A stretch of 64,000 nucleotides of DNA from an uncultured Smithella sp. Its GTDB lineage: Bacteria; Desulfobacterota; Syntrophia; Syntrophales; Smithellaceae. Made by a program: the position numbers and the translations under genes. The notes beneath the pieces were generated by a model. The model ran no database searches and was not told the origin of the DNA. It saw nothing but the letters and a program-made list of their open reading frames with translations. Where the stretch lies: contig CAZSQS010000003.1 in assembly GCA_964608995.1 (NCBI GenBank), positions 3,602-67,601 on the forward strand, given 5' to 3'. The stretch's first letter is position 1; each line of letters begins with the position of its first letter. Positions 24,852 through 40,554 of the stretch are shown piece by piece.

Positions 24852-25735
24852 AATCTTCCATTGACTGTATTCCCTGTTTCGTCCGCCAGGCGGCCGACGC
24901 GGTGAGCTTCGCGGCGCCGAAGGATGAAGATCGTAAACGTTTGATGCGCATTGTTCTGGAGTGGGTAAGCCATATCAATTTTGATCTGTCTCCGCCTGCC
25001 GCCGTTCAGATGATCCATCGACAATTGCGCGCCCTGACGCCTGCTGAGGATCCGTATCGTGCGGCCAAAGACCGTCAAAACGACCTGGCGGCGCGCCTGA
25101 TGCCATCGGTCCGCAAAAGAATTCTCGCGTCCTTTGACCCGCTGGACATGGCCGTGCGGTACGCGATTACCGGAAATATTCTTGATCTGGGCGCAAAAAA
25201 CAATCTGGGAATGGGGGATATTTACGCGGAATTTCAAAGCGCCTCGATCCAACCGGTTTTTGGCGACATGGCGGCGCTCAAGAAGGCCCTCTCGGGTGCC
25301 AAAAATATTTTGTATCTGGCGGACAACGCCGGAGAAATATTTTTCGACCGACTGTTGATCGAGCAGCTGGGCGGTCATAATGTGACGCTGGCCGTGCGTG
25401 GCGCGCCGGTGATCAACGACGCGACCCGCGAAGATGCTCTGGCGGCGGGTCTCGACGAAATCGTGAAGCTTATTGATAACGGTTCCGATGCGCCGGGGAC
25501 CATTTTGTCGGACTGCGGCGATGAATTTCGCCGGTGCTTTGACGAAGCGGATCTGATTATCGCCAAGGGCCAGGGCAATTTCGAGTCTCTCTCGGACGAA
25601 CCGCGTGATATCTTCTACCTGTTTCGGGTGAAGTGTCCGCTCATCAGCCGCCATGCAGGTTTCCCGGTTGGCAGCTATGTTGCCGCCAGTCGATGCGGCG
25701 GCCACCCTCCCAAATCTGAAAGAAGCGAATCATGA
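24848..25735 (+). CDS. DUF89 (ARMT1-like, damage-control phosphatase family) protein
   Basis: CIPCFVRQA..., LYLADNAGEIFFD, IIAKGQGNFESL. ATGA overlaps at both ends. Confidence 0.75.
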   Translation: MKSSIDCIPCFVRQAADAVSFAAPKDEDRKRLMRIVLEWVSHINFDLSPPAAVQMIHRQLRALTPAEDPYRAAKDRQNDLAARLMPSVRKRILASFDPLDMAVRYAITGNILDLGAKNNLGMGDIYAEFQSASIQPVFGDMAALKKALSGAKNILYLADNAGEIFFDRLLIEQLGGHNVTLAVRGAPVINDATREDALAAGLDEIVKLIDNGSDAPGTILSDCGDEFRRCFDEADLIIAKGQGNFESLSDEPRDIFYLFRVKCPLISRHAGFPVGSYVAASRCGGHPPKSERSES

Positions 25736-26595
25736 AAATTTCTGTTGCCTCCGGCAAGGGAGGAACTGGTAAAACCACGGTATCTGTTAATCTGGCCCGG
25801 ACGATGGCCTCAAGTGTGGCGCTTTTGGACTGCGATGTGGAAGAGCCCAACGCGCACCTGTTTCTTAAGGGGGAGGTCATTGACGAGGAGGTGGTCACGC
25901 TGCCCATTCCCAGGGTGGATGAATCGCTATGCGACGGTTGCGGCCTGTGCAGTAAAATCTGTGCGTTTAACGCGATTGTCACCTTCGGCACAGCGCCGCT
26001 GATTTTTCCGGAATTGTGCCATGGCTGCGGCGGCTGTGCGCGTGTTTGTCCGCCTAAAGCCATTACCGAAGAGGGACGACGCATCGGTGTGGTGGAGACG
26101 CGACGCACGGCGGACATTACGCTCATCACCGGGCGGCTCGATGTCGGGGTGGCCATGTCGCCTCCTCTGATCCGCGCCGTAAAGGCGCGCCTGAAGCAGG
26201 GGATGCCGGCGATTCTGGATGCGCCTCCCGGGACATCGTGTCCGGTGATTGCCGCGGTGCGGGATACGGACATCGTGCTTCTGGTAACGGAACCCACACC
26301 GTTTGGCCTCAATGATCTCTCTCTGGCGGTGGATATGGTGCGCGAGCTTGGCTTGCCCTTCGGCGTCATCATCAACCGCATGGGCTCGGGTGACAACCGC
26401 GTGCAGGATTACTGTGCAAAGGAGGGCATTGACATCCTGATGGAAATTCCCGATGACCGGCGCATCGCCGAGGCCTATTCCCGTGGCGAGATCATGGTGG
26501 ATGCCCTGCCCCACTATCGAATCCTTTTTGAAAATCTTTTAACAACCATCCGCAAGCGGATCTCTGAGGAAGAAAAACGTTATGCCAACCTTTAA
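25732..26595 (+). CDS. MinD/ParA-type P-loop ATPase with an inserted 2x[4Fe-4S] ferredoxin module (copy 1)
   Basis: SGKGGTGKTT, LLDCDVEEPNAHLF, CDGCGLCSKICAFNAI...CHGCGGCARVCPPKAI, and a DAPPGTSCP Walker B region. Confidence 0.85.
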   Translation: MKISVASGKGGTGKTTVSVNLARTMASSVALLDCDVEEPNAHLFLKGEVIDEEVVTLPIPRVDESLCDGCGLCSKICAFNAIVTFGTAPLIFPELCHGCGGCARVCPPKAITEEGRRIGVVETRRTADITLITGRLDVGVAMSPPLIRAVKARLKQGMPAILDAPPGTSCPVIAAVRDTDIVLLVTEPTPFGLNDLSLAVDMVRELGLPFGVIINRMGSGDNRVQDYCAKEGIDILMEIPDDRRIAEAYSRGEIMVDALPHYRILFENLLTTIRKRISEEEKRYANL

Positions 26596-27529
26596 GTATC
26601 TTTACGGTCCTGTGCCCTCGCGCCGCCTGGGGCGGTCGCTGGGGCTTGATCTGGTGCCCTTTAAAACCTGCACTTACGATTGCATCTATTGCCAGCTGGG
26701 GAAAACGACACATAAAACGACGGAAAGGCGTGAGTATGTTCCCACCGCGGAGGTTCTCAAAGAACTTCGGGAAAAACTCGCTTCCGGGCTGAAATGTGAT
26801 TATATCAGTCTGGCCGGTTCCGGAGAGCCCACGCTGCATGCGGGCATGGGGGAGCTGATCGCCAAAATCAAGGAAATGACAAAGATTCCCGTTTCGGTCA
26901 TCACCAACGGGTCGCTACTGTACCTGCCGGAGGTCCGCCAGTCGCTTCTGGGCGCAGACCTCGTTGTGCCGTCTCTGGATGCCGGTGACGCAGCGCTCTT
27001 CGAATATGTGAACCGGCCTTCTCCGGCCATTGATTTTCAGCAGATGGCCGAGGGAATCGTTTCTTTTGCCAGAGCGTATTCCGGGCGTCTGTGGCTAGAA
27101 GTCCTCCTGGTTTCCGGCGTGACCGGACTGCCTTCGGAGGCGAAAAAAATTGCGGCCTGGGCCGATAAAATCCATCCGGAAAAAATCCAGATCAACACCG
27201 TGAGCCGTCCCGCCTATGAAGATTTCGCCTGTGCCGTGGATCCGAAACAGATGAAAACGCTGGCCGGCTTATTTTCTCCGGTGGCCGAGATTCTCGAAAT
27301 CACCCATCCCGCTCACGCTGATGAAGCGAATCTGTCAAACGTCACGGACGCTGACATTATGAATCTTCTGGCGAGGCGGCCCTGTACGCTCGACGGGATC
27401 TCTGCGGGGCTTGGCCTGCATCCGCATGAGGCGGCCAAGCGCATCGAACATCTCAGAAACAACAACGCCATAGAAACAACGCGAAACGGGCGGAAAGTTT
27501 TTTATAAATTGACCAACACCCCCTTCTGA
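26582..27529 (+). CDS. radical SAM enzyme with a C-terminal winged-helix-like domain
   Basis: GPVPSRRLGRSLGLDLVPFKTCTYDCIYCQLG (CxxxCxxC), SLAGSGEPTL. 14-nt overlap with the upstream ATPase gene. Confidence 0.85.
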   Translation: MPTFKYLYGPVPSRRLGRSLGLDLVPFKTCTYDCIYCQLGKTTHKTTERREYVPTAEVLKELREKLASGLKCDYISLAGSGEPTLHAGMGELIAKIKEMTKIPVSVITNGSLLYLPEVRQSLLGADLVVPSLDAGDAALFEYVNRPSPAIDFQQMAEGIVSFARAYSGRLWLEVLLVSGVTGLPSEAKKIAAWADKIHPEKIQINTVSRPAYEDFACAVDPKQMKTLAGLFSPVAEILEITHPAHADEANLSNVTDADIMNLLARRPCTLDGISAGLGLHPHEAAKRIEHLRNNNAIETTRNGRKVFYKLTNTPF

Positions 27530-27547
27530 GGAGGCGCCCATCCGCCC

Positions 27548-27997
27548 ATGAATGACGCTTTGGAGACTAAAAAATATATTGAGGCCTGTCGGGAAACATT
27601 CTGGCAGAGGGTTTTCGCTGTTGAAGTGGACTATCTCTGTGAAAAGCTTCTGGGCTGCTCAGATGTTTTGAGCGTTGGCTGCGGTCCGGCATTCATTGAA
27701 GGAGAGCTGGCCGCGAAAGGCTATCGCGTCACCGGGCTGGATATTTCCCAGGAGGCTTTGAAGTGCGCGCCGGATAGCATTCGGACAATGGCTGGCCGGG
27801 CCGAAGACCTGTCGTTTCCAGAGTCCTCCTTCGATGCCGCCATTTTTGTGGCGTCTTTGCAATTCATTGAAGATTACCGGGCGGCGCTTAACCGTGCGGC
27901 GGCCGCATTAAAACCCGATGGCCGGATCATCGCGATGCTGCTTAACCCTGCGTCGGAATTCTACAAAGACCTGCGCCGCAAACCGGATGAATCATGA
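27548..27997 (+). CDS. class I SAM-dependent methyltransferase (short)
   Basis: VLSVGCGPAF (motif I), VTGLDIS, FDAAIFVASLQF. Confidence 0.7.
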   Translation: MNDALETKKYIEACRETFWQRVFAVEVDYLCEKLLGCSDVLSVGCGPAFIEGELAAKGYRVTGLDISQEALKCAPDSIRTMAGRAEDLSFPESSFDAAIFVASLQFIEDYRAALNRAAAALKPDGRIIAMLLNPASEFYKDLRRKPDES

Positions 27998-28026
27998 TCT
28001 TGCGAAATTAAAATGACCGGGAGGGG

Positions 28027-28650
28027 ATGCGTTTTATGCCCATCGATGAAAACGAATTAGCTCAAAATCACAAGCGCTACCGCAAGCGGATCGCGTTGTA
28101 TCGGAAATACGGATATGATGTTGACGAAGAGCGGAATTTTGTGATTGAAAAAGCAATGCCCATTTCCGGAAATATTCTGGAAGCCGGAACCGGAAAGGGT
28201 TATTTTTCGCTGGCCCTGGCCCGGCGGGGCTTTTTTTTCACCACCGTGGATGTCTCGCCTTCGGAGCAGTGGTATGCCGGGTTGAATCTGGGCTATTACG
28301 GTCTGGCGGGCCGCGTTCGTTTTGATGTGGCGGACCTGGAGCATCTTCCTTACGCCGATGCGTCTTATGATGTGATTTTTGCAGTCCATCTGGTTCATCA
28401 CCTCGCGTTAATCGAGCCCGCTTGCAGCGAACTTCTGCGGGTTTTATCGCCTTCGGGCAAAATTGTATTGAGTGACTTCAATGAAAAGGGTCGGGAGGTG
28501 GTGGATCAAATTCACGCCCTGGATGGAAAAAAGCATGAGGTAGGACCGGTGACCCTGGAGGCCGTCAAGGATTATTTGACCGATCGGGGCTTGTGGGTGG
28601 AAAAATATGAGGCAACGCATCAGGAGGTGCTGATGGCGTCGAGAGCCTGA
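28027..28650 (+). CDS. class I SAM-dependent methyltransferase
   Basis: ILEAGTGKGYFSLALARRG (motif I), TTVDVS, YDVIFAVHLVHHL. ATG 28039 is an alternative start. Confidence 0.7.
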   Translation: MRFMPIDENELAQNHKRYRKRIALYRKYGYDVDEERNFVIEKAMPISGNILEAGTGKGYFSLALARRGFFFTTVDVSPSEQWYAGLNLGYYGLAGRVRFDVADLEHLPYADASYDVIFAVHLVHHLALIEPACSELLRVLSPSGKIVLSDFNEKGREVVDQIHALDGKKHEVGPVTLEAVKDYLTDRGLWVEKYEATHQEVLMASRA

Positions 28651-28717
28651 GGCCGGATGGTCCAATGCTTTAAAAAAGGAAAGGGGGCGTAATCCCCTGG
28701 AGGACATTTTTGAGACG

Positions 28718-29587
28718 ATGAAAGAATTAGTAATTATCAGCGGGAAAGGCGGAACAGGAAAAACCTCTGTGGCGGCGTCGTTTGCGGTGCTCGCCTCGCG
28801 CGCCGTGATTTGTGATTGCGACGTGGACGCCGCGGATCTGCATTTGGTTTTAGCGCCCCAAATCCGGGAGCGTCATGAATTTCGAAGCGGGCATGAAGCC
28901 GTGATCCGGCCGGAAGATTGCTCGGGCTGCGGCGTGTGTCAGGAGATTTGCCGCTTTGATGCGATTGCGTTGGTTGACGGCGTTTATCGCATCGATCCGG
29001 TCGCCTGTGAAGGCTGTGGCGTGTGTGTGCATTTTTGCCCTGAAAAAGCGATTGACTTTCCCGAGCGTCTCTGCGGAAACTGGTTTGTTTCGGATACGCG
29101 CGTGGGGCCGATGGTGCATGCGCGTCTCGGTGTGGCGGCTGAAAATTCCGGCAAACTCGTCTCCACCGTGCGCACGGAGGCCAAGCATCTGGCCGAAGAA
29201 GAAAACTTCAATTGCGTTTTGGTGGATGGGCCTCCCGGTATTGGCTGTCCGGTCATCGCCTCGCTCACCGGCGCCTCGCAGGTTCTGGTGGTGACGGAGC
29301 CTACCGTATCGGGCGAGCATGATCTGGAGCGCGTGCTGGGGCTCGCGAGGCATTTTCAGATTCCCGCGTTTGTGTGCGTCAATAAATGGGACATCAATCC
29401 GGAGATGACCTGCCGCATCGAAAAGTCCGCCCGTGACGCAGGCGCTCGCATTGCCGGGCGCATCCGCTATGATCGGGCCGTCACCCGGGCGCAGATTGAT
29501 CAAAAAGCCGTCGTGGAAACTAAGGCCGCTTGCGCTCACGACATTAAAGAGATATGGACTTATTTGAATCAAGCAGGAGGATGTTGA
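28718..29587 (+). CDS. MinD/ParA-type P-loop ATPase with an inserted 2x[4Fe-4S] ferredoxin module (copy 2)
   Basis: SGKGGTGKTS, ICDCDVDAADLHLV, CSGCGVCQEICRFDAI...CEGCGVCVHFCPEKAI, VDGPPGIGCP. Paralog of the 25732 gene. Confidence 0.85.
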   Translation: MKELVIISGKGGTGKTSVAASFAVLASRAVICDCDVDAADLHLVLAPQIRERHEFRSGHEAVIRPEDCSGCGVCQEICRFDAIALVDGVYRIDPVACEGCGVCVHFCPEKAIDFPERLCGNWFVSDTRVGPMVHARLGVAAENSGKLVSTVRTEAKHLAEEENFNCVLVDGPPGIGCPVIASLTGASQVLVVTEPTVSGEHDLERVLGLARHFQIPAFVCVNKWDINPEMTCRIEKSARDAGARIAGRIRYDRAVTRAQIDQKAVVETKAACAHDIKEIWTYLNQAGGC

Positions 29588-29590
29588 AAA

Positions 29591-30499
29591 ATGGAGGACA
29601 AAGAAGTGGAAAACAAAAAAACGTGCAGTTCATGCACAGATTCAAGCTGCTCCGCAAAGGCAAAACAGCAGGGCGAAAGCGATAAGGACTACGCCGATCG
29701 TCAGCGGCTTCAAGCGAGGCTGTGCCGTATTGGGCATAAAATTGCCGTGCTGTCCGGCAAGGGCGGCGTCGGCAAAAGCACGGTGGCGGTGAACCTGGCC
29801 ACGGCGCTGGCGCTCAACGGGCTGCGCGTGGGGCTTTTGGATATCGATATTCACGGGCCCAGCGTTCCCACGATGCTGGGGCTTGAAGGCCAATCGCTCA
29901 AAGGCAATCCCGGTGAGATTTTTCCCGTGGAATTCGGCGGGCTCAAAGTGATGTCCATTGGCTTTTTACTGCAAAATCCCGACGATGCGGTCATCTGGCG
30001 CGGTCCCATGAAAATGGGCGTCATCAAGCAGTTTCTGACGGATGTCAACTGGGGCGATCTGGACTATCTGATCATCGATTTGCCCCCCGGCACGGGTGAC
30101 GAGCCACTGTCGCTTTGCCAGTTAATCCAGCCGCTGACCGGCGCGGTGATTGTCACGACGCCGCAAAAAGTCGCGGCGGTGGATGTGCGCAAGTCCATCA
30201 GTTTCTGCAAACGGCTGGAGGTGCCGGTTTTGGGCGTGGTGGAAAACATGAGCGGTTTTGTCTGTCCCAAGTGCGGCGAGCTGACGCAGATTTTGCCGGA
30301 GGGTGGCGGAAGAAAAATCGCAACCGACATGGATGTGCCTTTCCTGGGCGCCATTCCTCTGGATCCGGGCATTGCGCAATCCGGCGATTCCGGCAAAGTG
30401 TTTATTTATCATTCGTCCAAAACGCCGACGGGAATCATTCTGCAGGAGATTATCGATCAGATTACCGAGCCGGATAAAACAAAAAAAATTAACGCATAA
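29591..30499 (+). CDS. Mrp/NBP35/ApbC-family Fe-S cluster carrier ATPase
   Basis: N-terminal Cys cluster (CSSCTDSSC), SGKGGVGKST, DLPPGTGD and a GFVCPKCG motif. Confidence 0.85.
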   Translation: MEDKEVENKKTCSSCTDSSCSAKAKQQGESDKDYADRQRLQARLCRIGHKIAVLSGKGGVGKSTVAVNLATALALNGLRVGLLDIDIHGPSVPTMLGLEGQSLKGNPGEIFPVEFGGLKVMSIGFLLQNPDDAVIWRGPMKMGVIKQFLTDVNWGDLDYLIIDLPPGTGDEPLSLCQLIQPLTGAVIVTTPQKVAAVDVRKSISFCKRLEVPVLGVVENMSGFVCPKCGELTQILPEGGGRKIATDMDVPFLGAIPLDPGIAQSGDSGKVFIYHSSKTPTGIILQEIIDQITEPDKTKKINA

Positions 30500-33042: not shown

Positions 33043-33046
33043 AAAA

Positions 33047-33085
33047 GAATCAGCTGGACGGCAGCATCTGCCATCCAGCTGATTC
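33047..33085. terminator. bidirectional hairpin between convergent genes (12-bp perfect stem GAATCAGCTGGA / TCCAGCTGATTC)
   Basis: Read directly, with an A-tract on the 5' side. Sits between the DUF481 stop (33042) and the Spx/ArsC-like stop (33127). Confidence 0.55.
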
Positions 33086-33126
33086 TGTGCATCCTGCGGC
33101 GTGAAGATCGGGTCGGTTGCGATAAC

Positions 33127-33468
33127 TTATAGAATCTCCGCAAGCACCTTGCTGTCCGCGCCAAAGTAAACCGCTTTACCGATTTTTACGACAGGGCGGC
33201 GAATCAGGCGAGGTTCCGAAAGCATCAGGTCGATGAGCTTATCCTCCGAAAGGGATTCGCGCGAAATTCCCAGCGCCTTGAAGGCCGGCGAGCGGAAGCT
33301 GAACATCTCTTCGGCGGCGTGGCCTTTGAGCAGCCCTTGTATTTCAGCCCGCGTAAAAGGGCTTGAAAAAAAATCACGATCCGAAAACGTCACCTTCTTT
33401 TGCAAGAGAAACTCTCTTGCTTTGCGACACGTCGTTCACTTGTTCCAGCAATAAAATTCAATCTTCAT
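33127..33468 (-). CDS. Spx/ArsC-family thioredoxin-fold protein with in-frame TGA (candidate selenocysteine, UxxC motif)
   Basis: The track ORF (33127-33405) lacks the family's N-terminus. Extending upstream in frame gives ATG 33468 (AAGGAG RBS) and MKIEFYCWNK-TGA-TTCRKAREFLLQKKV..., 113 codons in total. The TGA (33436-33438) occupies the first Cys of the Spx CxxCRKAR motif. Confidence 0.6.
33402..33420 (-). promoter_or_regulatory. candidate bacterial SECIS hairpin
   Basis: On the mRNA: UGA, 15 nt, then GCAAGAGA-GUU-UCUCUUGC (8-bp perfect stem, G/U in the loop). Confidence 0.45.
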
Positions 33469-33543
33469 GGACAACTCCTTTTTGACGGCAACGTGAAAAA
33501 ACAGGTAAACCCGCCCTTTTGCTTATTATCGAACAATTCGGGT

Positions 33544-33572
33544 GTAGGGAACGGTTTTAAACCGTTCCCTAC
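33544..33572. repeat. REP1 palindromic element copy b
   Basis: GTAGGGAACGGTTTTAAACCGTTCCCTAC. Its CTA end (33569-33571) is the TAG stop of gcdA on the minus strand. Confidence 0.85.
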
Positions 33573-35335
33573 GGATTTGGCCGATCCAATCCTTTCACAA
33601 TCTGCGAGCGGATGATCCGGGGCAGAATCATGTGATGATGCGGGCAGATGGAGCGCGGGTTCTGGTAACAACAGTTGGCAAAGCCCACCAGATAGCGTCT
33701 TAACGCCTGGAAGCGGACCGTCTCGTCAACAAAGCCTTTTTTCGCACAATACACAGCACCGGATGTTTTGCGGTAGTGATCAACCATTTCATTCATTTTG
33801 TCGATGGTCGCCTGCAGAGGCTTTCCCTCTTGCTGATCCTTGACTAATCGTCTCGCGTAGGTTGCCGCGGCAGCCGTCTCGCCGTGCATGACATTGATTT
33901 CCGTGGCTGCGGTACCCAGGGTGAAGGCATTGTTGTCATTGGCGACCGGTCCGCACATGACATAATATCCGGCGACGCTGCCTTTGCGCAACACAATCAG
34001 CATCATCGGCAGGCGGGAGTTTTCTATTGAATACACCAGCGATTGTCCCAACCCCAGAAGTTCCGCCTTTTCCGCGTCATCCCCCACGTCCAGTCCGTCA
34101 GTGTCCTGAAACCAGACCAGGGGCGTCTTGTCGCGCGAACACAATGTGACAAACTCACTCATTTTGATAAGTCCCTGGCGGTAGAGCTTTCCTCCCGTGC
34201 CTGAATAAGCGGTTGTATATTCGGGATAATCCGGCAAAGCCTTCTGGCGATTGCCGATGACGCCGAGCAGGAACCCGTCGATTTTGACCAGACCGCAGTA
34301 GACTTCTGGTCCGAAATCCGGTCGAAATTCAAGATGCTGGGACGAATCCACCAGGCGTGCCAGCACTTGTTCAAAATCGTAGCCGATCGTTTTATCGACC
34401 GGAACAATCGAGGCAATTTCGTCGGGAGAATAAACGGGGTCGGCCGGTTCGGCCACGCGGAAAAAGCGAGGTTTGTACGCGGGCAGATCGTCCATGTAAT
34501 CTTTAATGGCGTCGAGCACCTGCGTTTCTTCATCAAAGACCGCCCGGAAAAAACCGGTGATGTCGTGATGAATTTTGACGCTGCCGGGAGGAACGGATTT
34601 GAACTTTGTGGTGGCGCTGATAATCTCTTGGGCGCGCGCTTCATTGAAAGCGCCGGCAGGTTTGATGCCGCTGATGATGCCCACGCCGCCTACGGCCATA
34701 TTGGCTTTTTTGTGCGCGAGCAAAAGGGTCGGACTGATCGACTGATAACCGCCTCCGGCGGGATTGGTGCCGTAAATACCGGCAATAACGGGATGTCCGG
34801 AAATTTCCAGCTCGGCATGTCGATAAAAACAGGCGCCCTGGCCCCGTCGGCCGGCATAGACTTTTTCCTGTTCAGGCAGTTTGACGCCCGAGCAGTTCAC
34901 CAGCCAGACCAAAGGGACATGGAGGATTTTTGCCAACTGGGTGACACGAAGATTATTTTCCGCCTGTCCGGCGATCCAGGCGCCCGCCATCCATTTATTG
35001 TTGAAACCGACGAGGATGCACCACTTGCCGTGAATACGCGCGAGGCCATCGACGACATTCGTTTGCCCCGATTCTTCGTTCCCCGGATCGAAAATGCTGT
35101 GCAGCGGGCAGAAGGTCCCCGGATCGACAAGATAGTCGATGCGCTCCCAGACGCTCATCTCACCGCGCTCATGCAGCTTCTCAAGCGGCACGCCGACGTT
35201 TTTGATCCGATCGATTTCCATATCAATGACGCGCAGAATCTCGTCGATCTTTTCGCGATTGTCCCGCATGTTTTCGATTTGTTGGGCGGAAAGGGGGGTT
35301 CCCAGCGGATCCATCTTTTCAAAGTATTGTTTCAT
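33569..35335 (-). CDS. gcdA: glutaconyl-CoA decarboxylase alpha subunit-type carboxyltransferase
   Basis: 588 aa from ATG 35335 (AAGGAG RBS). KWCILVGFNNKWMAGAW, VNCSGVKLPEQEKVY, GIYGTNPAGGGY, GGKLYRQGLIKMSEFVTLC, AEKAELLGLGQSL and YQNP.SICP.H.MILPR closely match my recollection of GcdA. The track start 35398 reads through a repeat. Confidence 0.8.
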   Translation of the reverse strand: MKQYFEKMDPLGTPLSAQQIENMRDNREKIDEILRVIDMEIDRIKNVGVPLEKLHERGEMSVWERIDYLVDPGTFCPLHSIFDPGNEESGQTNVVDGLARIHGKWCILVGFNNKWMAGAWIAGQAENNLRVTQLAKILHVPLVWLVNCSGVKLPEQEKVYAGRRGQGACFYRHAELEISGHPVIAGIYGTNPAGGGYQSISPTLLLAHKKANMAVGGVGIISGIKPAGAFNEARAQEIISATTKFKSVPPGSVKIHHDITGFFRAVFDEETQVLDAIKDYMDDLPAYKPRFFRVAEPADPVYSPDEIASIVPVDKTIGYDFEQVLARLVDSSQHLEFRPDFGPEVYCGLVKIDGFLLGVIGNRQKALPDYPEYTTAYSGTGGKLYRQGLIKMSEFVTLCSRDKTPLVWFQDTDGLDVGDDAEKAELLGLGQSLVYSIENSRLPMMLIVLRKGSVAGYYVMCGPVANDNNAFTLGTAATEINVMHGETAAAATYARRLVKDQQEGKPLQATIDKMNEMVDHYRKTSGAVYCAKKGFVDETVRFQALRRYLVGFANCCYQNPRSICPHHHMILPRIIRSQIVKGLDRPNP

Positions 35336-35354
35336 GGCGATGCTCCTTATAAAT

Positions 35355-35379
35355 ATCCCCTCCCCTTGCGGGAGGGGAT
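35355..35379. repeat. G/C-rich palindromic element ATCCCCTCCC-CTTGC-GGGAGGGGAT
   Basis: 10-bp perfect stem in the acd-gcdA spacer, followed by GAAGGGGAGGGGGG. Confidence 0.7.
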
Positions 35380-35412
35380 GAAGGGGAGGGGGGAACAATG
35401 AGAGTTTGCCGT

Positions 35413-36570
35413 CTATACCCGGTTGGGCGCGAATCCCATCGCCGCGTTGGCGACGATCATCGTATGCATATTGGAGGTGCCTTCAAGCGTTTCGAACTGC
35501 TTGCAGTCGCGCAGGAAGCGGCCGCACGGATATTCGTCGGAGTAGCCAAACGACCCGTAGAGCTTCATGGCTTCATTGGCGTCATGGACAACGACTTTCG
35601 CGCCGTAGAGTTTCGACATGGAGGTTTCCATGACATTGGGAAGCCCGCGGTCCTTGAGCCAGGCGGCTTTGTAAACCAGCGCCGCCAGGGTTTCATGACC
35701 GATTTTCATTTCCGCCACCTGCTGTTGAATGAGCTGATACCGGCCGATTTCCTTGCCGAACTGGCTGCGCTCGGTGGCGTATTTGGCGCAGGCTTCCAGA
35801 ATTGCGCCGGAAAGGCCCAGAGCGCCCGCCGAGCAGCCCAGACGCGTAGAGTTGAGCTGCGTCATGCACATCTGGAAGCCCTTGTTGAGTTTTCCTAGGA
35901 GCAGATGCTTCGGAACCTTGACGTCTTCAAAAGTAAGTTCCGCCGTATCGGATGCCCACAGGCCAACTTTTTCATTAATTTTTCGGCGTGTAATCCCGGG
36001 AAGGCTGTAGTCCATAATAAAACAACTCACGCCGTTGGCGCCTGCGTCCTTGTCGGTTTTCACGTAGAGCAGACCGTGATTCGTGACTGTGCCGTTGGTA
36101 ATCCACATCTTGTTGCCGTTGATCAGGTAGTAGTCGCCCTTGTCTTCGGCGCGGCATTTCATGGACGCGACATCCGATCCGATGTCCGGTTCGGTCATGG
36201 CGAAGCTGCCGATGTACTCGCCGGAAACGAATTTCGGAATATAGTGCTCTTTTTGCTCATCCGTTCCGAATTTCTGAATGGTGAGCGCGGGGCCCCAGCA
36301 CTGCATGTTGAATGCCATGCGCCAGGAGGTGTGCACTTTGGCGATCTGTTCGATGGCGAGCGCGCCCTCCAGAAATCCCATGCCGTTGCCGCCGTATTTT
36401 TCGTCGATGGAGAAGCCGAAAAATCCGAGCTCGGCCATCTTGTCGAAAATTTCCTTACGCCAGAAATGATTTTTTTCGTCTTCTTCCACATGCGGTGCGA
36501 GTTCTTTTTCGGCGAAATTTCGTGCCGTATCTGAAATCATTTTTTGTTCGTCGGTGAATGCAAAATCCAT
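35413..36570 (-). CDS. acyl-CoA dehydrogenase (possibly glutaryl-CoA dehydrogenase-like, from context)
   Basis: 385 aa with FAMTEPDIGSD, WITNG and ETLEGTSNMH. Adjacent to gcdA. Confidence 0.85.
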   Translation of the reverse strand: MDFAFTDEQKMISDTARNFAEKELAPHVEEDEKNHFWRKEIFDKMAELGFFGFSIDEKYGGNGMGFLEGALAIEQIAKVHTSWRMAFNMQCWGPALTIQKFGTDEQKEHYIPKFVSGEYIGSFAMTEPDIGSDVASMKCRAEDKGDYYLINGNKMWITNGTVTNHGLLYVKTDKDAGANGVSCFIMDYSLPGITRRKINEKVGLWASDTAELTFEDVKVPKHLLLGKLNKGFQMCMTQLNSTRLGCSAGALGLSGAILEACAKYATERSQFGKEIGRYQLIQQQVAEMKIGHETLAALVYKAAWLKDRGLPNVMETSMSKLYGAKVVVHDANEAMKLYGSFGYSDEYPCGRFLRDCKQFETLEGTSNMHTMIVANAAMGFAPNRV

Positions 36571-36601
36571 AATATTTAATTCCTCCCCGGTAATTTTTTA
36601 T

Positions 36602-36626
36602 CTGGATTCCCGCTCGAGCGGGAATC
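36602..36626. repeat. REP2-related palindrome CTGGATTCCCGCTCGAGCGGGAATC
   Basis: GATTCCCGC/GCGGGAATC arms, in the thiolase-acd spacer. Confidence 0.7.
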
Positions 36627-36655
36627 GTGTGGTAGATAACGGTCTCGACCGTTTC

Positions 36656-37921
36656 TTACATTCGTTCAATAACCATGCAAATGCCCTGACCGCCGCCGCC
36701 GCAAATCGTTTCCAGGCCGAAACGTGCATTGCTGCGAACCATTTCACCAAGCAGCGTGGTCAGACGCATCGTGCCGGTGGCGCCAATGGGATGCCCCAGC
36801 GAAATGCCCGAGCCGTTGATGTTGACTTTTTCGTCCATCTGTTCGTCGGAAAGCCCCGCGAGCCTCGCATCCGCCAGACACTGCACGGCAAACGCTTCCT
36901 GGACTTCTATTAAATCCATGTCGCCAATTGTCTTTCCGGCTTTTTTCAGCGCCTTGGAGACCGCGGCTGGAACGGCCGGATACGTGAGTGTCGGATTGGT
37001 GGCCGCCACCGCGCAGGAACGATAATAGGCCAGGGGGGCAATGCCCAGTTCCTTGGCTTTTTTCTCGGAGGCTAAAATGACCACGGCCGCACCGTCGTTT
37101 TCCGACGACGAGTTGCCGGCCGTGCAGACGCCGTCTTTATACACGGTTTTGAGTTTGCCGAGTTTTTCCAGCGTGCTTTCACGGCGCGGGCCTTCATCGG
37201 TTTTAAAATAAATCGTCTCGCCGCTTTTATCCTTGCCGGTCGGGACGGGTGCGATTTCATCGACAAACTTTCCTGCATCCTGGGCGGCGATGGCCCGCTG
37301 ATGGCTGCGAAGCGCCCAGCGGTCGGCCTCTTCGCGGGTGATGCCTTCATTTTTGGCGGCGGTTTCCGCCCAGGTCATCATGGAGCTTAGCTCCCCGTAG
37401 CGCCAGATCGGCTGGCTCATCACACGTCCCCGCTGAATCCGGTCATAAAAGGGGATGCCCCACATGGCCAAAGCCCCGTGGCCCCGCGGCATGAAGCCGT
37501 ATTTTTCATGGTTTTTGCCGCCCAGTCCCCACTTGACGTCGCCGGGAATGTAGAGCTCACTTTGGCTCATCGATTCCATGCCGCCTGCGATGACGATGTC
37601 GGCATTGCCCGTCTGGATCTGCAAGGCGGCGTAATAGATGCTTTCCAGCCCCGAGCAGCAGCGCCGGTCGATCATGCCGCCGGGAATTGTATCCGGCCAG
37701 TTGGCGTCGAGCACCGCCATGCGTGCGCCGTTGGCGCATTCACCGTTTTGATAGGCAGACGCCATGATGACATCGTCGATCATCGCGGGCTCAATTCCGG
37801 CCTTCTTCACCGCCGCCTGTAACACGACGCTGGCCATTCGGTAAATGGGCACGTCTTTGAGCGCGCCGCCGTACGCGCCGATGGGCGTGCGCGCACAACT
37901 GATAAAAACGACATTTTCCAT
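36656..37921 (-). CDS. thiolase (acetyl-CoA C-acyltransferase family)
   Basis: 421 aa with a CCSGLESI active-site region, GHPIGATG and CGGGGQGICMVIE. AAGGAG RBS. Confidence 0.85.
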   Translation of the reverse strand: MENVVFISCARTPIGAYGGALKDVPIYRMASVVLQAAVKKAGIEPAMIDDVIMASAYQNGECANGARMAVLDANWPDTIPGGMIDRRCCSGLESIYYAALQIQTGNADIVIAGGMESMSQSELYIPGDVKWGLGGKNHEKYGFMPRGHGALAMWGIPFYDRIQRGRVMSQPIWRYGELSSMMTWAETAAKNEGITREEADRWALRSHQRAIAAQDAGKFVDEIAPVPTGKDKSGETIYFKTDEGPRRESTLEKLGKLKTVYKDGVCTAGNSSSENDGAAVVILASEKKAKELGIAPLAYYRSCAVAATNPTLTYPAVPAAVSKALKKAGKTIGDMDLIEVQEAFAVQCLADARLAGLSDEQMDEKVNINGSGISLGHPIGATGTMRLTTLLGEMVRSNARFGLETICGGGGQGICMVIERM

Positions 37922-38164
37922 ATTTGCACTCCTTGAAATTATTTTTTAATCTTTATCTAATCGTGAATGACCGCGAAGCGGTTTATTTTATTAATGAAAA
38001 TAAGGCGCGATTAAACGTGATGCGGCATACGACGGCTTGCGCCTGAAAAAAACGTTTTTCTTATACCTCTCCTTATTCTTTTTAACCACTTTTTTTTACG
38101 TGAGAATCCGCAGATTTGATCGTGGCGTTTATTGGCGGTCAGGTGTTTATAAAGCGGGCGGAAT

Positions 38165-38195
38165 AAAAAAAGGCGGGCAAGCCCGCCTTTTTTTC
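38165..38195 (-). terminator. rho-independent terminator (GGCGGG-CAAG-CCCGCC flanked by A- and T-tracts)
   Basis: Immediately downstream of the DUF3141 gene stop (38207). The T-run follows on either strand. Confidence 0.65.
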
Positions 38196-38206
38196 GATGA
38201 GGTTGT

Positions 38207-40366
38207 TTACAGCCCCAGGCCCTTCTTAATTTTTTCGAGCATGTCCTTTTCCGCTTCCTTGTAAACGCCGTCCACCAGGCAAAGCCGCCGGGCGATGCCG
38301 AGCGCATCGAGGCGGTCGTCTTTGCTCTTGATCAGCACCGACAGCGATGCCAGCGCTTTTTCTTCGTTTGCCTGAAGCAGCGCCGTTTGTTCATGCATAA
38401 TCCGTTTGAAGTCCGCCGGACGCAGTTTGCTTAAAACCTTGTGCGTTCTGGCAATTTCATCGGCCACTTCAAAATGCCGTCTTTTGACCTCAGTCCCGAT
38501 GCGGGCGACGGCCATGTAAATGCGAATCAACCCGGCGGCGTGCCCCCCGGTTTCCATTGCGGCCAGACGTTTGTCGTAGTCAGGCCGATCCTGCTCGGCC
38601 ATATCTTCCGATTGTTGTTCCTCAACCGGTGGGAAGAGCGATCGAAGCAGACCGCTGCCGTATATCATCTGGAACATCGCCTCGGAGTTGCGATCGCGCC
38701 AGTCCCGGTAAATGTCCAGCGTGCTTTCGATATAATCGGAAAAAGCCTTTTCCAGAAGGGTAAAGGGATTGTCTGGCGATGCGGGCTTGCGGTTTTGCCG
38801 GGTAATGGAGGCGATATTCTTCACGGGCCGCATCAGCGGATTGGTGTCGGCGAAGATATAGCGCTGCAGGCGCAGCGGATGCATATAGCGAATCATTTCC
38901 GCCGATAGCTCTGTAGTCATCAGTTTCACCCACGGGCGCGCCAGTAACTGATAGAGATTGTCGTTGGTTTCCGATACCTTCGCTACGACGCTGAAATCCA
39001 CTTCGTCTTGCGTGCCGTCGTCATAGGCTGCGATGTCCTTAAAGGTGCGCGGCTCAAAGCGGGTGCTGAACTTTCCGGTGAGCACATCGCCGTCGATGAC
39101 CATTTCGTAAAGGCCCGGCTGCAGAAAATCAATCATGTCGAAGTTGCCGATAATTTCCTTGTGCTCCTTTTTGGCAATCGATCCCGCGACAAAAATGCCC
39201 AGATGGCCGATGTCCTGGTGGACGATATAGATGATGACCTGACCACAGTGCCGGATGTCCTCAACGGAATCATAGACGCGCGGAATCCAGTTGAGCGCCT
39301 GCTGGGCCGGCGTGATGTTGTCGCCCAGAGATGCAAAAACCAGAATCGGGCTTTCAATGGATTTAAGGCTGATCTTCTGACCTTCGCGAAGCTCCAGATC
39401 GCCGCGTTCCAGTTTGTTGCCGACGAACAGATTCCGCACGATATAGTGGATCTCATCGGTGGTGAGCATGAAGAAGCCGCCCCACCAGCGTTCGAAAGCC
39501 AGAAAGCGTTCCTCTTCCGTGTCTACATTGGCATAGACGTTGTAGAGTTTGGTCCAAAGTGTGTTGGCGGGATTAAGGGTTTCAAAGTTATAGACGAGGT
39601 TGGCGCCGTCGAACACGCCGTTACCCAGATCGCTGAAGAAGGAATTCACCCACACACCGCCGATCAGGCCTCCCTTGTAGCGCATGGGGTTGACACCTTC
39701 CACGCCGCTCCAGTAGGACAGGGGCGCGCCGCTTAAAACCAGGGGCCCGGATACATCGGGCCGCTCGGCGCAGGCAATCGCCGCCGCCCAGCCCGCCTGG
39801 CAGTTGCCCATGATGGCGGGCGCATCGGCGTGCGGATGCAGCTCGACGATTTTCTCCATAAATTTTTCCATGGCTGAAATGACGTCCGGCATCGTCTGAC
39901 CGGGGATGGGTTCCGTGTAGAAAAGGATGAAGTAAACCGGATGGCCATGCTCCAGCGCCATGCCGATTTCAGAGTCGCGTTTGGAGCCCCCGATGCCCGG
40001 CCCGTGCCCGGCTCGCGGATCGACAATGACGATGGGCCGCTTGGGCCTCGAAAGACGCTCTTTGCTTTTGTGTCTGCGTTCCGAACGCTTAGCCACTTCC
40101 TCCTCTTCGCAACGTCTGTCAGAGATGCGCACCAGCGCGTAATTGCAGGGACGCTCGAAGTTTTTTGCGTTGAGGATCATTTCATAATTGAAGGTGAGCA
40201 CCGGCGGCTGGCCGTTGCGGATATGGCGGATGTAGTTGTTGCCGCGCTTGCGCAGGATGTCCGTGAAAATAATCCCGCGCTGGACGGAATCGACCAGGTA
40301 TTCGCCAAGCGATTTGGACCAGTCGGTCCAGGGGCCTTTGTTGCTGAAATTGGATGCTTCCTCCAT
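38207..40366 (-). CDS. DUF3141-family (alpha/beta-hydrolase-like) protein
   Basis: 719 aa from ATG 40366 (AAGGAG RBS). N-terminal region DILRKRGNNYIRHIRNGQPPVLTFNYEMILN...NYALVRI matches my recollection of DUF3141 proteins. Confidence 0.55.
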   Translation of the reverse strand: MEEASNFSNKGPWTDWSKSLGEYLVDSVQRGIIFTDILRKRGNNYIRHIRNGQPPVLTFNYEMILNAKNFERPCNYALVRISDRRCEEEEVAKRSERRHKSKERLSRPKRPIVIVDPRAGHGPGIGGSKRDSEIGMALEHGHPVYFILFYTEPIPGQTMPDVISAMEKFMEKIVELHPHADAPAIMGNCQAGWAAAIACAERPDVSGPLVLSGAPLSYWSGVEGVNPMRYKGGLIGGVWVNSFFSDLGNGVFDGANLVYNFETLNPANTLWTKLYNVYANVDTEEERFLAFERWWGGFFMLTTDEIHYIVRNLFVGNKLERGDLELREGQKISLKSIESPILVFASLGDNITPAQQALNWIPRVYDSVEDIRHCGQVIIYIVHQDIGHLGIFVAGSIAKKEHKEIIGNFDMIDFLQPGLYEMVIDGDVLTGKFSTRFEPRTFKDIAAYDDGTQDEVDFSVVAKVSETNDNLYQLLARPWVKLMTTELSAEMIRYMHPLRLQRYIFADTNPLMRPVKNIASITRQNRKPASPDNPFTLLEKAFSDYIESTLDIYRDWRDRNSEAMFQMIYGSGLLRSLFPPVEEQQSEDMAEQDRPDYDKRLAAMETGGHAAGLIRIYMAVARIGTEVKRRHFEVADEIARTHKVLSKLRPADFKRIMHEQTALLQANEEKALASLSVLIKSKDDRLDALGIARRLCLVDGVYKEAEKDMLEKIKKGLGL

Positions 40367-40554
40367 GCCGGTTCTCCTTCGCGAACGGATTGACCCATGC
40401 TGAATCATGAGTCTTTATACATTAACGACACCGGGGGCCGTTGTCAAGCGTTCAAAATCTTTCCATAATCGACCGTTACGCGCGCCACAGACGCAAGCAG
40501 TTCCTCCCCGGAATCGCTTGAAGTTCCGTGTTGAATCTGTTAAAAATTGCGTCT

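Follow-up and report, generated by a model that had tools for sequence, protein, structure and literature searches.

A 2006 survey reported ArsC-like selenoproteins from Desulfotalea and Desulfuromonas (PMC1794560), and in 2008, 42 selenocysteine (Sec)-containing sequences of an 'arsenate reductase 2' with a UxxC motif, assigned to cd03032 (ArsC_Spx), were described in the Global Ocean Sampling (GOS) data (PMC2398784); a 2026 review lists ArsC-like UxxC selenoproteins as NF041106 (PMC13188914). These surveys agree with what the original prediction for the locus analyzed here had stated of them and, given that ArsC-like UxxC selenoproteins are already established, the present results leave the knowledge of selenoproteins unchanged. 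The gene in question lies on the minus strand (33468-33127) of a 64,000-nucleotide (nt) stretch of DNA from an uncultured Smithella sp. (contig CAZSQS010000003.1), hereinafter the window. This gene very likely encodes a 113-residue predicted selenoprotein of the ArsC/Spx/MgsR superfamily, with an in-frame UGA recoded under the direction of a selenocysteine insertion sequence (SECIS), and with the predicted activity of a selenol/thiol-disulfide oxidoreductase.

A conserved in-frame UGA in an ArsC/Spx-family gene

Extension of the minus-strand reading frame 5' of the called open reading frame (ORF) leads to an ATG at 33468-33466 and yields 113 sense positions followed by a TAA stop; the translation reads MKIEFYCWNK*TTCRKAREFLLQKK..., where the stop symbol is the TGA at codon 11. 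Direct reading reproduces the gene structure given in the original prediction in full, namely the ATG at 33468, the AAGGAG ribosome-binding site, the sequence MKIEFYCWNK[TGA]TTCRKAREFL and the length of 113 codons. The predicted absence of the N-terminal CxxC region from the called ORF of 92 amino acids (aa) was equally correct, given that this ORF (33127-33405) starts with TTG, past the redox motif. ORF callers indeed truncate the gene, as had been claimed: exactly the same 92-aa product is called on metagenome contigs, and a search of 5.8 billion proteins yielded 162 relatives, nearly all of which are 88-96 aa long and cover about 81% of the query, indicating truncation at one and the same point. 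A few relatives of 115-116 aa read ...F(Y/F)CW..C-T-T-C-R....

From a scan of one genome per species, the best 80 of the 159 relative loci were kept (counts of 81 add the window sequence). These loci come mostly from Smithella, Smithellaceae, Syntrophaceae and Syntrophales metagenome-assembled genomes (MAGs), together with 12 from Dehalococcoidia/Chloroflexi and one from a Desulfobacteraceae MAG, and in all 80, residues 1-113 were aligned by tblastn straight across the in-frame stop. Codon 11 is TGA in 79 of the 80 orthologous loci and TGC in the remaining one (L025). There are no further in-frame stops and no frameshifts in the 81 sequences, and the median pairwise nucleotide identity of the ortholog set outside the hairpin described below is 0.665. 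In the codons preceding the UGA (-10 to -1), entropy is low at the first and second positions and high at the third, which is a coding signature, and upstream of the Met codon all positions are near 2 bits and conservation vanishes; in 68 of 79 orthologs, coding-type conservation sets in abruptly with this Met. The 11 codons between the TGA and the TTG at 33405 are also under protein-level purifying selection, including the invariant Cys14.

The residue expected at the UGA position can be deduced from several groups of relatives. In alignments to solved Spx structures, the UGA falls on the leading Cys (Cys10) of the CTSC motif of Spx, and Cys14 falls on the second one; in a BLASTP alignment, the UGA corresponds to the catalytic Cys12 of the Escherichia coli R773 ArsC (the query sequence was identical to PDB 1i9d). 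Closer to the window protein, Cys encoded by TGC occupies this position in L025 and in the relatives P0002, P0003, P0006 and P0010 (CW..C-T-T-C). A seeming Trp form (P0007, L086:233-583; ..CWAKWNTCR..) has TGA in the DNA; evidently, it was called with the genetic code in which TGA is Trp, so that such 'W' forms are hidden Sec forms. These comparisons show that the UGA at codon 11 occupies a conserved sense position. Elsewhere in the source genome, TGA serves as an ordinary stop and ends 13 of 43 long ORFs.

Under the simplest alternative, the TGA would be a true stop, and the locus either a nonsense pseudogene or a gene for a 92-aa protein that starts from the TTG at 33405, possibly with a 10-codon leader peptide. 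In favor of this view, the 92-aa form is the one given by gene callers and in public annotation, and no Sec machinery is seen in the window. However, a single TGA has been kept in 80 of the 81 sequences at a median identity of about 0.67, without any other stop or frameshift, and the codons on both sides of it evolve under purifying selection that extends to the invariant Cys7 and Cys14. Furthermore, the 92-aa product would be devoid of strand beta-1 and of the whole redox motif of the fold, and the starts of the truncated ORFs are inconsistent between orthologs, being M, L or V at different codons. The retention of TGA at one codon in two phyla, with coding conservation on both sides, excludes both the nonsense pseudogene and the start at 33405, and we accordingly regard this alternative as extremely improbable.

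A stem-loop maintained at the RNA level

Downstream of the UGA, the window sequence contains the hairpin GCAAGAGA-GUU-UCUCUUGC (33420-33402), whose arms (33413-33420 and 33402-33409) are 100% complementary, in full agreement with the perfect 8-base-pair (bp) stem and GUU loop 15 nt past the TGA that had been noticed originally; the loop begins 23 nt past the UGA. The 31-nt hairpin region folds with -11.0 kcal/mol (z = -2.97), and two of 200 shuffled sequences were as good. In this one sequence, the hairpin is only moderately beyond chance. Given this moderate single-sequence signal, the case rests on the conservation among orthologs, and this proves very strong.

The conservation was assessed in an ungapped alignment of 80 Sec-form sequences (A2), in which the stem is formed by columns 19-26 with 30-37. 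Altogether, 95.6% of the stem cells are paired, compared to 33-60% in a control where the partner was slid by 1-3 columns, and neither the observed covariation score nor the paired fraction was reached in any of 500 shuffles. Two of the pairs covary: at columns 21-35, there are 36 GC, 24 AU and 18 GU pairs and 2 other combinations, and at columns 23-33, there are 45 GC, 30 AU and 5 GU pairs with no exception. On a neighbor-joining tree computed without the hairpin, from the remainder of the gene, the two sides of pair 23-33 change at least 13 and at least 14 times, respectively, and the pair is never broken; the tree is short and noisy, which makes these change counts rough.

The covarying pairs join a synonymous site to a non-synonymous one, namely the wobble base of Ala17 to the second base of Leu/Ser22, and the second base of Arg/Lys18 to the wobble base of Leu21; given this arrangement, protein constraint alone gives no reason for the covariation. 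Resampling of synonymous codons from the codon usage of the family itself, with the proteins kept, produced 52.5% pairing (maximum 57.7%) and 0.3% full hairpins in 1000 trials, against the observed 95.6% and 68.8%, respectively. The first loop nucleotide is an invariant G which is the wobble base of Glu19, and this residue is encoded by GAG in 78 of 78 cases, whereas the other Glu codons of the same genes comprise 261 GAG and 299 GAA (47% GAG). Published bacterial SECIS elements have a conserved apical-loop G as their hallmark (PMC2398784, legend of Fig. 7). In L089, a relative with about 42% identity, TGA is found at this codon too (YWWSR-U-SSCRK), and the hairpin at the same offset differs in sequence. 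Comparative analysis thus shows that the stem-loop that starts 15 nt downstream of the UGA is kept by selection on the RNA itself, and the conservation in orthologs on which the original prediction depended is confirmed by covariation and by synonymous-site constraint across the 80 sequences.

Several additional structural features were noted in this region. An outer helix (columns 5-10 with 44-49) was considered and is not claimed, given that only 71% of its cells are paired and that its register differs in the window: the helix CCACCU/AGGUGG is possible in many orthologs, and the window instead has GUCGC/GUGAC (33424-33428 with 33389-33393). A second inverted repeat is located inside the coding sequence (CDS) on the minus strand at 33332-33363, about 75 nt downstream of the UGA (10 nt, 90% complementary, with a 12-nt spacer). 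As a caution for users of the tool, RNAalifold in its default mode overlooks an 8-bp hairpin that 69 of the 80 sequences form on their own, because a few of the sequences are mismatched in the terminal pairs.

Family, fold and predicted function

With Cys put in place of the stop, the window protein matches the Pfam ArsC family (PF03960) with 63.7 bits, against a cutoff of 24, and the NCBIfam model TIGR01617 (Spx/MgsR) with 76.8 bits, against 75.05; of eight other clade members, seven remain below the latter cutoff (62-73 bits) and one scores 79.1. With the Spx-specific models (NF002459, NF009210, NF009885), the scores are 68 bits against a cutoff of 123, 46 against 159 and 42 against 152, and the arsenate reductase model TIGR00014 gives 41.4 bits against 106. 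Among solved structures, the best matches are Spx proteins (3l78, with E = 2e-14, 1z3e and 3gfk). In the AlphaFold2 (AF2) model of the Cys homolog P0003, which is 64% identical to the window protein, the predicted local distance difference test score (pLDDT) is 95.6 and the motif Cys is positioned directly before the helix 12-23. A Foldseek search with this model gave, as its best matches, Spx, YffB-like and ArsC structures with template modeling (TM) scores of 0.76-0.84, which do not discriminate between these subfamilies.

The possibility that the product is a bona fide arsenate reductase was rejected. The position of ArsC Arg107 is taken by Ala104, an invariant residue of the clade; R91 aligns with ArsC Arg94, and the placement of Arg60 is ambiguous in the BLASTP alignment. 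Given that the equivalent of Arg107 is Ala, the protein is not a true arsenate reductase, and its TIGR00014 score is far below the cutoff.

The relationship with Spx requires more consideration, because the protein could be a selenoprotein that acts not as an enzyme but as a redox-sensing regulator of the Spx/MgsR type, binding the C-terminal domain of the RNA polymerase alpha subunit (alpha-CTD) and turned on when the U11-C14 selenenylsulfide forms. Spx proteins are the best matches in both sequence and structure, the TIGR01617 score of the window protein exceeds the cutoff, the motif U-T-T-C-R-K-A-R mirrors C-T-S-C-R-K-A-R of Spx, and the counterpart of Spx R60 is also an Arg. Against this, Gly52 of Spx, which is required for alpha-CTD binding, aligns with Ala51 in a column that varies in the clade (Ala/Pro/Ser), and the window protein ends at residue 113, compared to 131 in Spx, so that the C-terminal tail of about 18 residues (approximately 115-131), which is used for regulated proteolysis, is absent. 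The failure of seven of the eight other clade members to reach the TIGR01617 cutoff, and the scores with the Spx-specific models far below theirs, point in the same direction. To our knowledge, characterized Spx regulators are confined to Firmicutes, and we know of no selenoprotein that is a transcription regulator. Given that Gly52 and the C-terminal tail are missing, the window protein is probably not an Spx regulator, and we consider the regulatory function unlikely. Thus, of the Spx naming in the original prediction, the part that stands is that Spx is the nearest named relative by sequence; the Spx-specific features (Gly52 and the C-terminal tail) are not there.

A more specific proposal, namely that a Sec-based switch of the Spx/MgsR type operates in a small RNA-polymerase-binding regulator of the strictly anaerobic Syntrophales and Dehalococcoidia, also appears quite unlikely; if true, it would make this protein the first selenoprotein transcription regulator, and Cys7 might tune or extend such a U11-C14 switch. 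Spx, ArsC and most of the distant CxxC relatives lack Cys7, which is located four residues before Sec and might serve as a third redox or metal ligand.

Decoding of the UGA

The reading of the TGA as Sec in a U-T-T-C redox center, as put forward in the original prediction, is supported by sequence comparison, namely by the conserved TGA, the alignment with Cys in the Spx CTSC motif, at ArsC Cys12 and in four Cys-form relatives (the homologs that were expected to carry Cys there), and the conserved hairpin. In the mechanism that we propose, the hairpin would function as a bacterial SECIS element, with the invariant G-U in its apical loop, that recruits SelB, guanosine triphosphate (GTP) and the Sec-charged transfer RNA (SelB-GTP-Sec-tRNA(Sec)) while the ribosome pauses at the UGA. 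Sec would be inserted there in competition with release factor 2, and the ribosome would then go on through the hairpin, which doubles as codons A17-Q23 of helix alpha-1. In the product, U11-T-T-C14 would be located at the N-terminal end of helix alpha-1, Sec would be the attacking nucleophile, and Cys14 would resolve the selenenylsulfide.

An alternative is that a selC* tRNA(Cys) bearing a UCA anticodon, brought to the ribosome by SelB or by a paralog of SelB, recodes the UGA partly or wholly as Cys. In delta-proteobacteria and in a composite Smithella genome, selC* tRNA(Cys) species are described whose anticodon is GCA or the opal UCA, and in Syntrophobacterales and Desulfobacterales, a second selB copy adjoins selC* (PMC5389517); all comparative signals found here, namely the conserved UGA and the conserved hairpin, are equally compatible with SelB-type delivery of Cys. 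According to the same paper, the composite Smithella genome has selA/B/C/D and also carries the tRNA(Sec)-like selC* tRNA(Cys), which leaves a small possibility of some UGA decoding as Cys. However, a complete selA/B/C/D set is reported there for all selC*-bearing genomes, so that Sec insertion is available in them, and Cys would be encoded more simply by a plain TGC, yet TGA is retained in all but one of the 81 sequences. The clade is also found in Dehalococcoidia, for which the portion of PMC5389517 at hand does not report selC*, and neither a tRNA(Sec) nor a selC* tRNA is present in the window. Insertion of Cys at this UGA therefore seems very improbable to us.

Several observations weigh against the assignment as a selenoprotein with a SECIS element and have to be set beside the evidence for it. 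First, selA, selB, selD and tRNA(Sec) were detected neither in the 64-kb window nor in 60 related loci; this search consisted of Pfam scans of 40 window ORFs for the SelA, SelB and SelD domains and of ARAGORN runs on the window and the 60 loci, which returned no tRNAs of any kind. The presence of the Sec machinery in the source genome is thus assumed; published data do favor the use of Sec in this lineage, given the selA/B/C/D set of the composite Smithella genome (PMC5389517) and the 19 selenoproteins of Syntrophus aciditrophicus (PMC1794560). Second, the hairpin of the single sequence is not particularly distinctive. The stability of the fold of a 76-nt context is not unusual (z = -0.28), and a rough filter modeled on bacterial SECIS elements (a stem of 6 bp or more, a G at one of the first two loop positions, a UGA-to-loop distance of 16-37 nt, and dG of -7.5 kcal/mol or lower) is passed by 144 of the 2136 TGA triplets in the window (about 7%). 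An Rfam scan of the whole window at gathering thresholds, and of the locus at E <= 10, gave no SECIS or other meaningful family. Third, RNAalifold with default settings returned a weak unrelated structure for the 80-sequence alignment instead of the hairpin; we attribute this miss to the penalty that the program imposes on incompatible sequences, that is, to a scoring artefact. The energy of the hairpin on the alignment is -9.3 kcal/mol, and the program recovers it with RIBOSUM scoring (-15.4 kcal/mol), with nc_fact = 0, or with 20 sequences or fewer.

Fourth, the Cys forms do not provide a clear contrast. The hairpin of P0002 is intact (8 of 8 pairs), and the three other Cys forms have one stem disruption each, one of them also being without the loop G; with four distinct Cys forms in total and an intact hairpin in P0002, loss of the hairpin in Cys forms is not demonstrated. 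Finally, the gene neighborhood is not conserved across the 80 loci and offers no functional clue, and it is from motif and fold only that we infer a small selenol/thiol-disulfide oxidoreductase with a U-T-T-C center.

Distribution and implications for annotation

The Sec-form gene is found with the same hairpin in Dehalococcoidia/Chloroflexi and in Syntrophales MAGs, at 60-66% protein identity. This pattern suggests lateral transfer of the gene together with its SECIS between the phyla, or else mis-binning. The Dehalococcoidia/Chloroflexi loci are L027, L045, L049, L051, L052, L058, L064, L065, L067, L070, L078 and L080.

A wider search covered 1.84 billion cluster representatives, from which 150 representatives of more distant ArsC/Spx-like clusters were inspected. 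Dozens of these 150 (clusters P0131-P0270) are ORFs of 90-105 aa that start just past the CxxC position (MRAWL..., MKAEL..., MTCRK...). The sole distant cluster checked in DNA, P0137 (L089:1501-1797 plus 75 nt upstream), is the relative of about 42% identity with the in-frame TGA that was mentioned above. Given the many truncated ORFs in distant ArsC-like clusters, the use of Sec in the ArsC/Spx superfamily is probably much wider than the catalogues show.

The practical value of the finding is mainly for annotation. The gene is widespread in Smithellaceae/Syntrophales and Dehalococcoidia and is truncated in essentially every public record; in this analysis alone, no fewer than 79 genomes at the species level and over 100 protein clusters are affected. 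The truncated records lose the redox center, and the existing NCBIfam model for an ArsC selenoprotein does not capture this clade. In addition, the family offers a clean, well-sampled example of a predicted bacterial SECIS that overlaps a conserved alpha-helix and visibly shapes the choice of both codons and amino acids: the wobble base of Leu21 covaries with R/K at position 18, and that of Ala17 with L/S at position 22.

Gene structure and genomic surroundings

The features of the gene are collected in Table 1.

Table 1. Coordinates of the predicted selenoprotein gene and its associated elements in the window.
Feature	Position	Strand	Description and basis
Full CDS, ArsC/Spx-family thioredoxin-fold protein	33127..33468	-	113 codons (predicted Sec at codon 11) plus TAA; translation, Pfam, tblastn
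Shine-Dalgarno sequence AAGGAG	33475..33480	-	Read directly; 6 nt between AAGGAG and ATG 33468
In-frame UGA, codon 11, first position of U-T-T-C, predicted to be read as selenocysteine	33436..33438	-	TGA in 80/81 sequences, TGC in 1; Cys alignments
Cys14 codon (TGT), partner Cys of UxxC	33427..33429	-	79/79 orthologs, codon +3 from UGA
Cys7 codon (TGC), clade-specific, C-x3-U-x2-C	33448..33450	-	Cys in 79/79 orthologs, codon -4
SECIS-like hairpin, 8-bp stem and GUU loop	33402..33420	-	Begins 15 nt past UGA; overlaps codons A17-Q23, helix alpha-1
Truncated ORF, TTG start, 92 aa	33127..33405	-	Mechanical ORF call; version reported by gene callers
Strong intrinsic terminator 3' of gene	33046..33086	-	19-bp stem, then T run

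The gene stands alone in the window, flanked by a gene for a carboxyltransferase and by a convergent one for a DUF481 protein. Among the 80 loci, the commonest neighbor is a 153-aa DUF3783 protein encoded directly downstream on the same strand (13 loci, e.g., L007:642-1103), and a NUDIX protein is encoded in that position in six other loci; neither a DUF3783 nor a NUDIX gene is present in the window. At 33544-33572, there is a perfect 14-bp palindrome (GTAGGGAACGGTTT/AAACCGTTCCCTAC, with 1 nt between the arms) that extends over the stop codon of the carboxyltransferase gene upstream and has no T run. Between these two genes, it could act like a terminator or bind a protein.

No further selenoprotein gene was found among the same-frame adjacent ORF pairs in the window, which are ordinary operon neighbors, such as gcvT/H/P. 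A scan of the window for bacterial SECIS-like elements gave 19 open-frame candidates. Two of these were looked at and rejected: the candidate at 25732 (minus strand) translates to an Arg-rich shadow frame, and the one at 907 (minus strand) is antisense to a well-supported ATP-grasp gene.

Three other regions of the window are of note. The minus-strand gene run at 33569-40408 encodes a 609-aa carboxyltransferase, an acyl-CoA dehydrogenase, a thiolase and a 733-aa DUF3141 protein (765 bits), and fits syntrophic metabolism of fatty acids or of the glutaryl-CoA type in a Syntrophales genome. On the plus strand, the region 25732-30499 encodes three P-loop NTPases of the CbiA/ParA/Mrp type (two with 4Fe-4S ferredoxin inserts), a radical SAM protein and two class I methyltransferases, and looks like a set for maturation of a metallocluster or cofactor. 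A 634-aa protein encoded at 52496-54400 (minus strand) has as its sole Pfam match an N-terminal eCIS core domain (PF13699, E = 1e-11).

Comparison with known systems

The window clade shares the principal features of the catalogued ArsC-like UxxC selenoproteins: membership in COG1393/PF03960, predicted Sec as the first residue of UxxC at the N-terminus of helix alpha-1, a hairpin just downstream, and occurrence in anaerobic delta-proteobacteria. It differs from the NF041106 group (ArsC_rel_Se_1) in that its members score only 28-37 bits against the cutoff of 85 (30.2 for the window protein and 27.8-37.4 for eight other members), in the almost complete predominance of the Sec form (79 of 80 genomes), in the extra invariant Cys at position -4, and in the presence in two phyla. 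On model scores and motif, the clade is a distinct branch of the already known ArsC-like UxxC selenoproteins.

Among proteins with solved structures, Spx/MgsR (Bacillus subtilis Spx; 1z3e, 3gfk, 7f75) has C/U-T-S/T-C-R-K-A-R at the same position, and both the equivalent of Arg60 and the motif L-(I/L)-R-R-P are conserved. Unlike Spx, the window protein has predicted Sec in place of Cys10, does not conserve Gly52, has no tail and is found outside Firmicutes. The R773 ArsC (1i9d) has the same fold (TM of about 0.81), with the predicted Sec falling on Cys12 and R91 on Arg94, but its motif is C-G-T-S, without a second Cys there, compared to U-T-T-C in the window protein, and its Arg107 is replaced by Ala104.

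The hairpin, in turn, resembles bacterial SECIS elements of the E. coli fdhF type in being a stem-loop inside the CDS directly 3' of the UGA, with an 8-bp stem and a loop that begins with G and then U. The bSECISearch consensus of Zhang and Gladyshev, dating from 2005, reportedly places the loop 16-37 nt from the UGA, and the 23 nt found here fall within this range. Unlike the usual bacterial SECIS, the hairpin has a very small loop of 3 nt, which would grow to 5 nt on opening of the closing A-U pair, and no bulged U is evident; furthermore, the lower stem is not consistently conserved (71% paired), and no Rfam model recognizes the hairpin.

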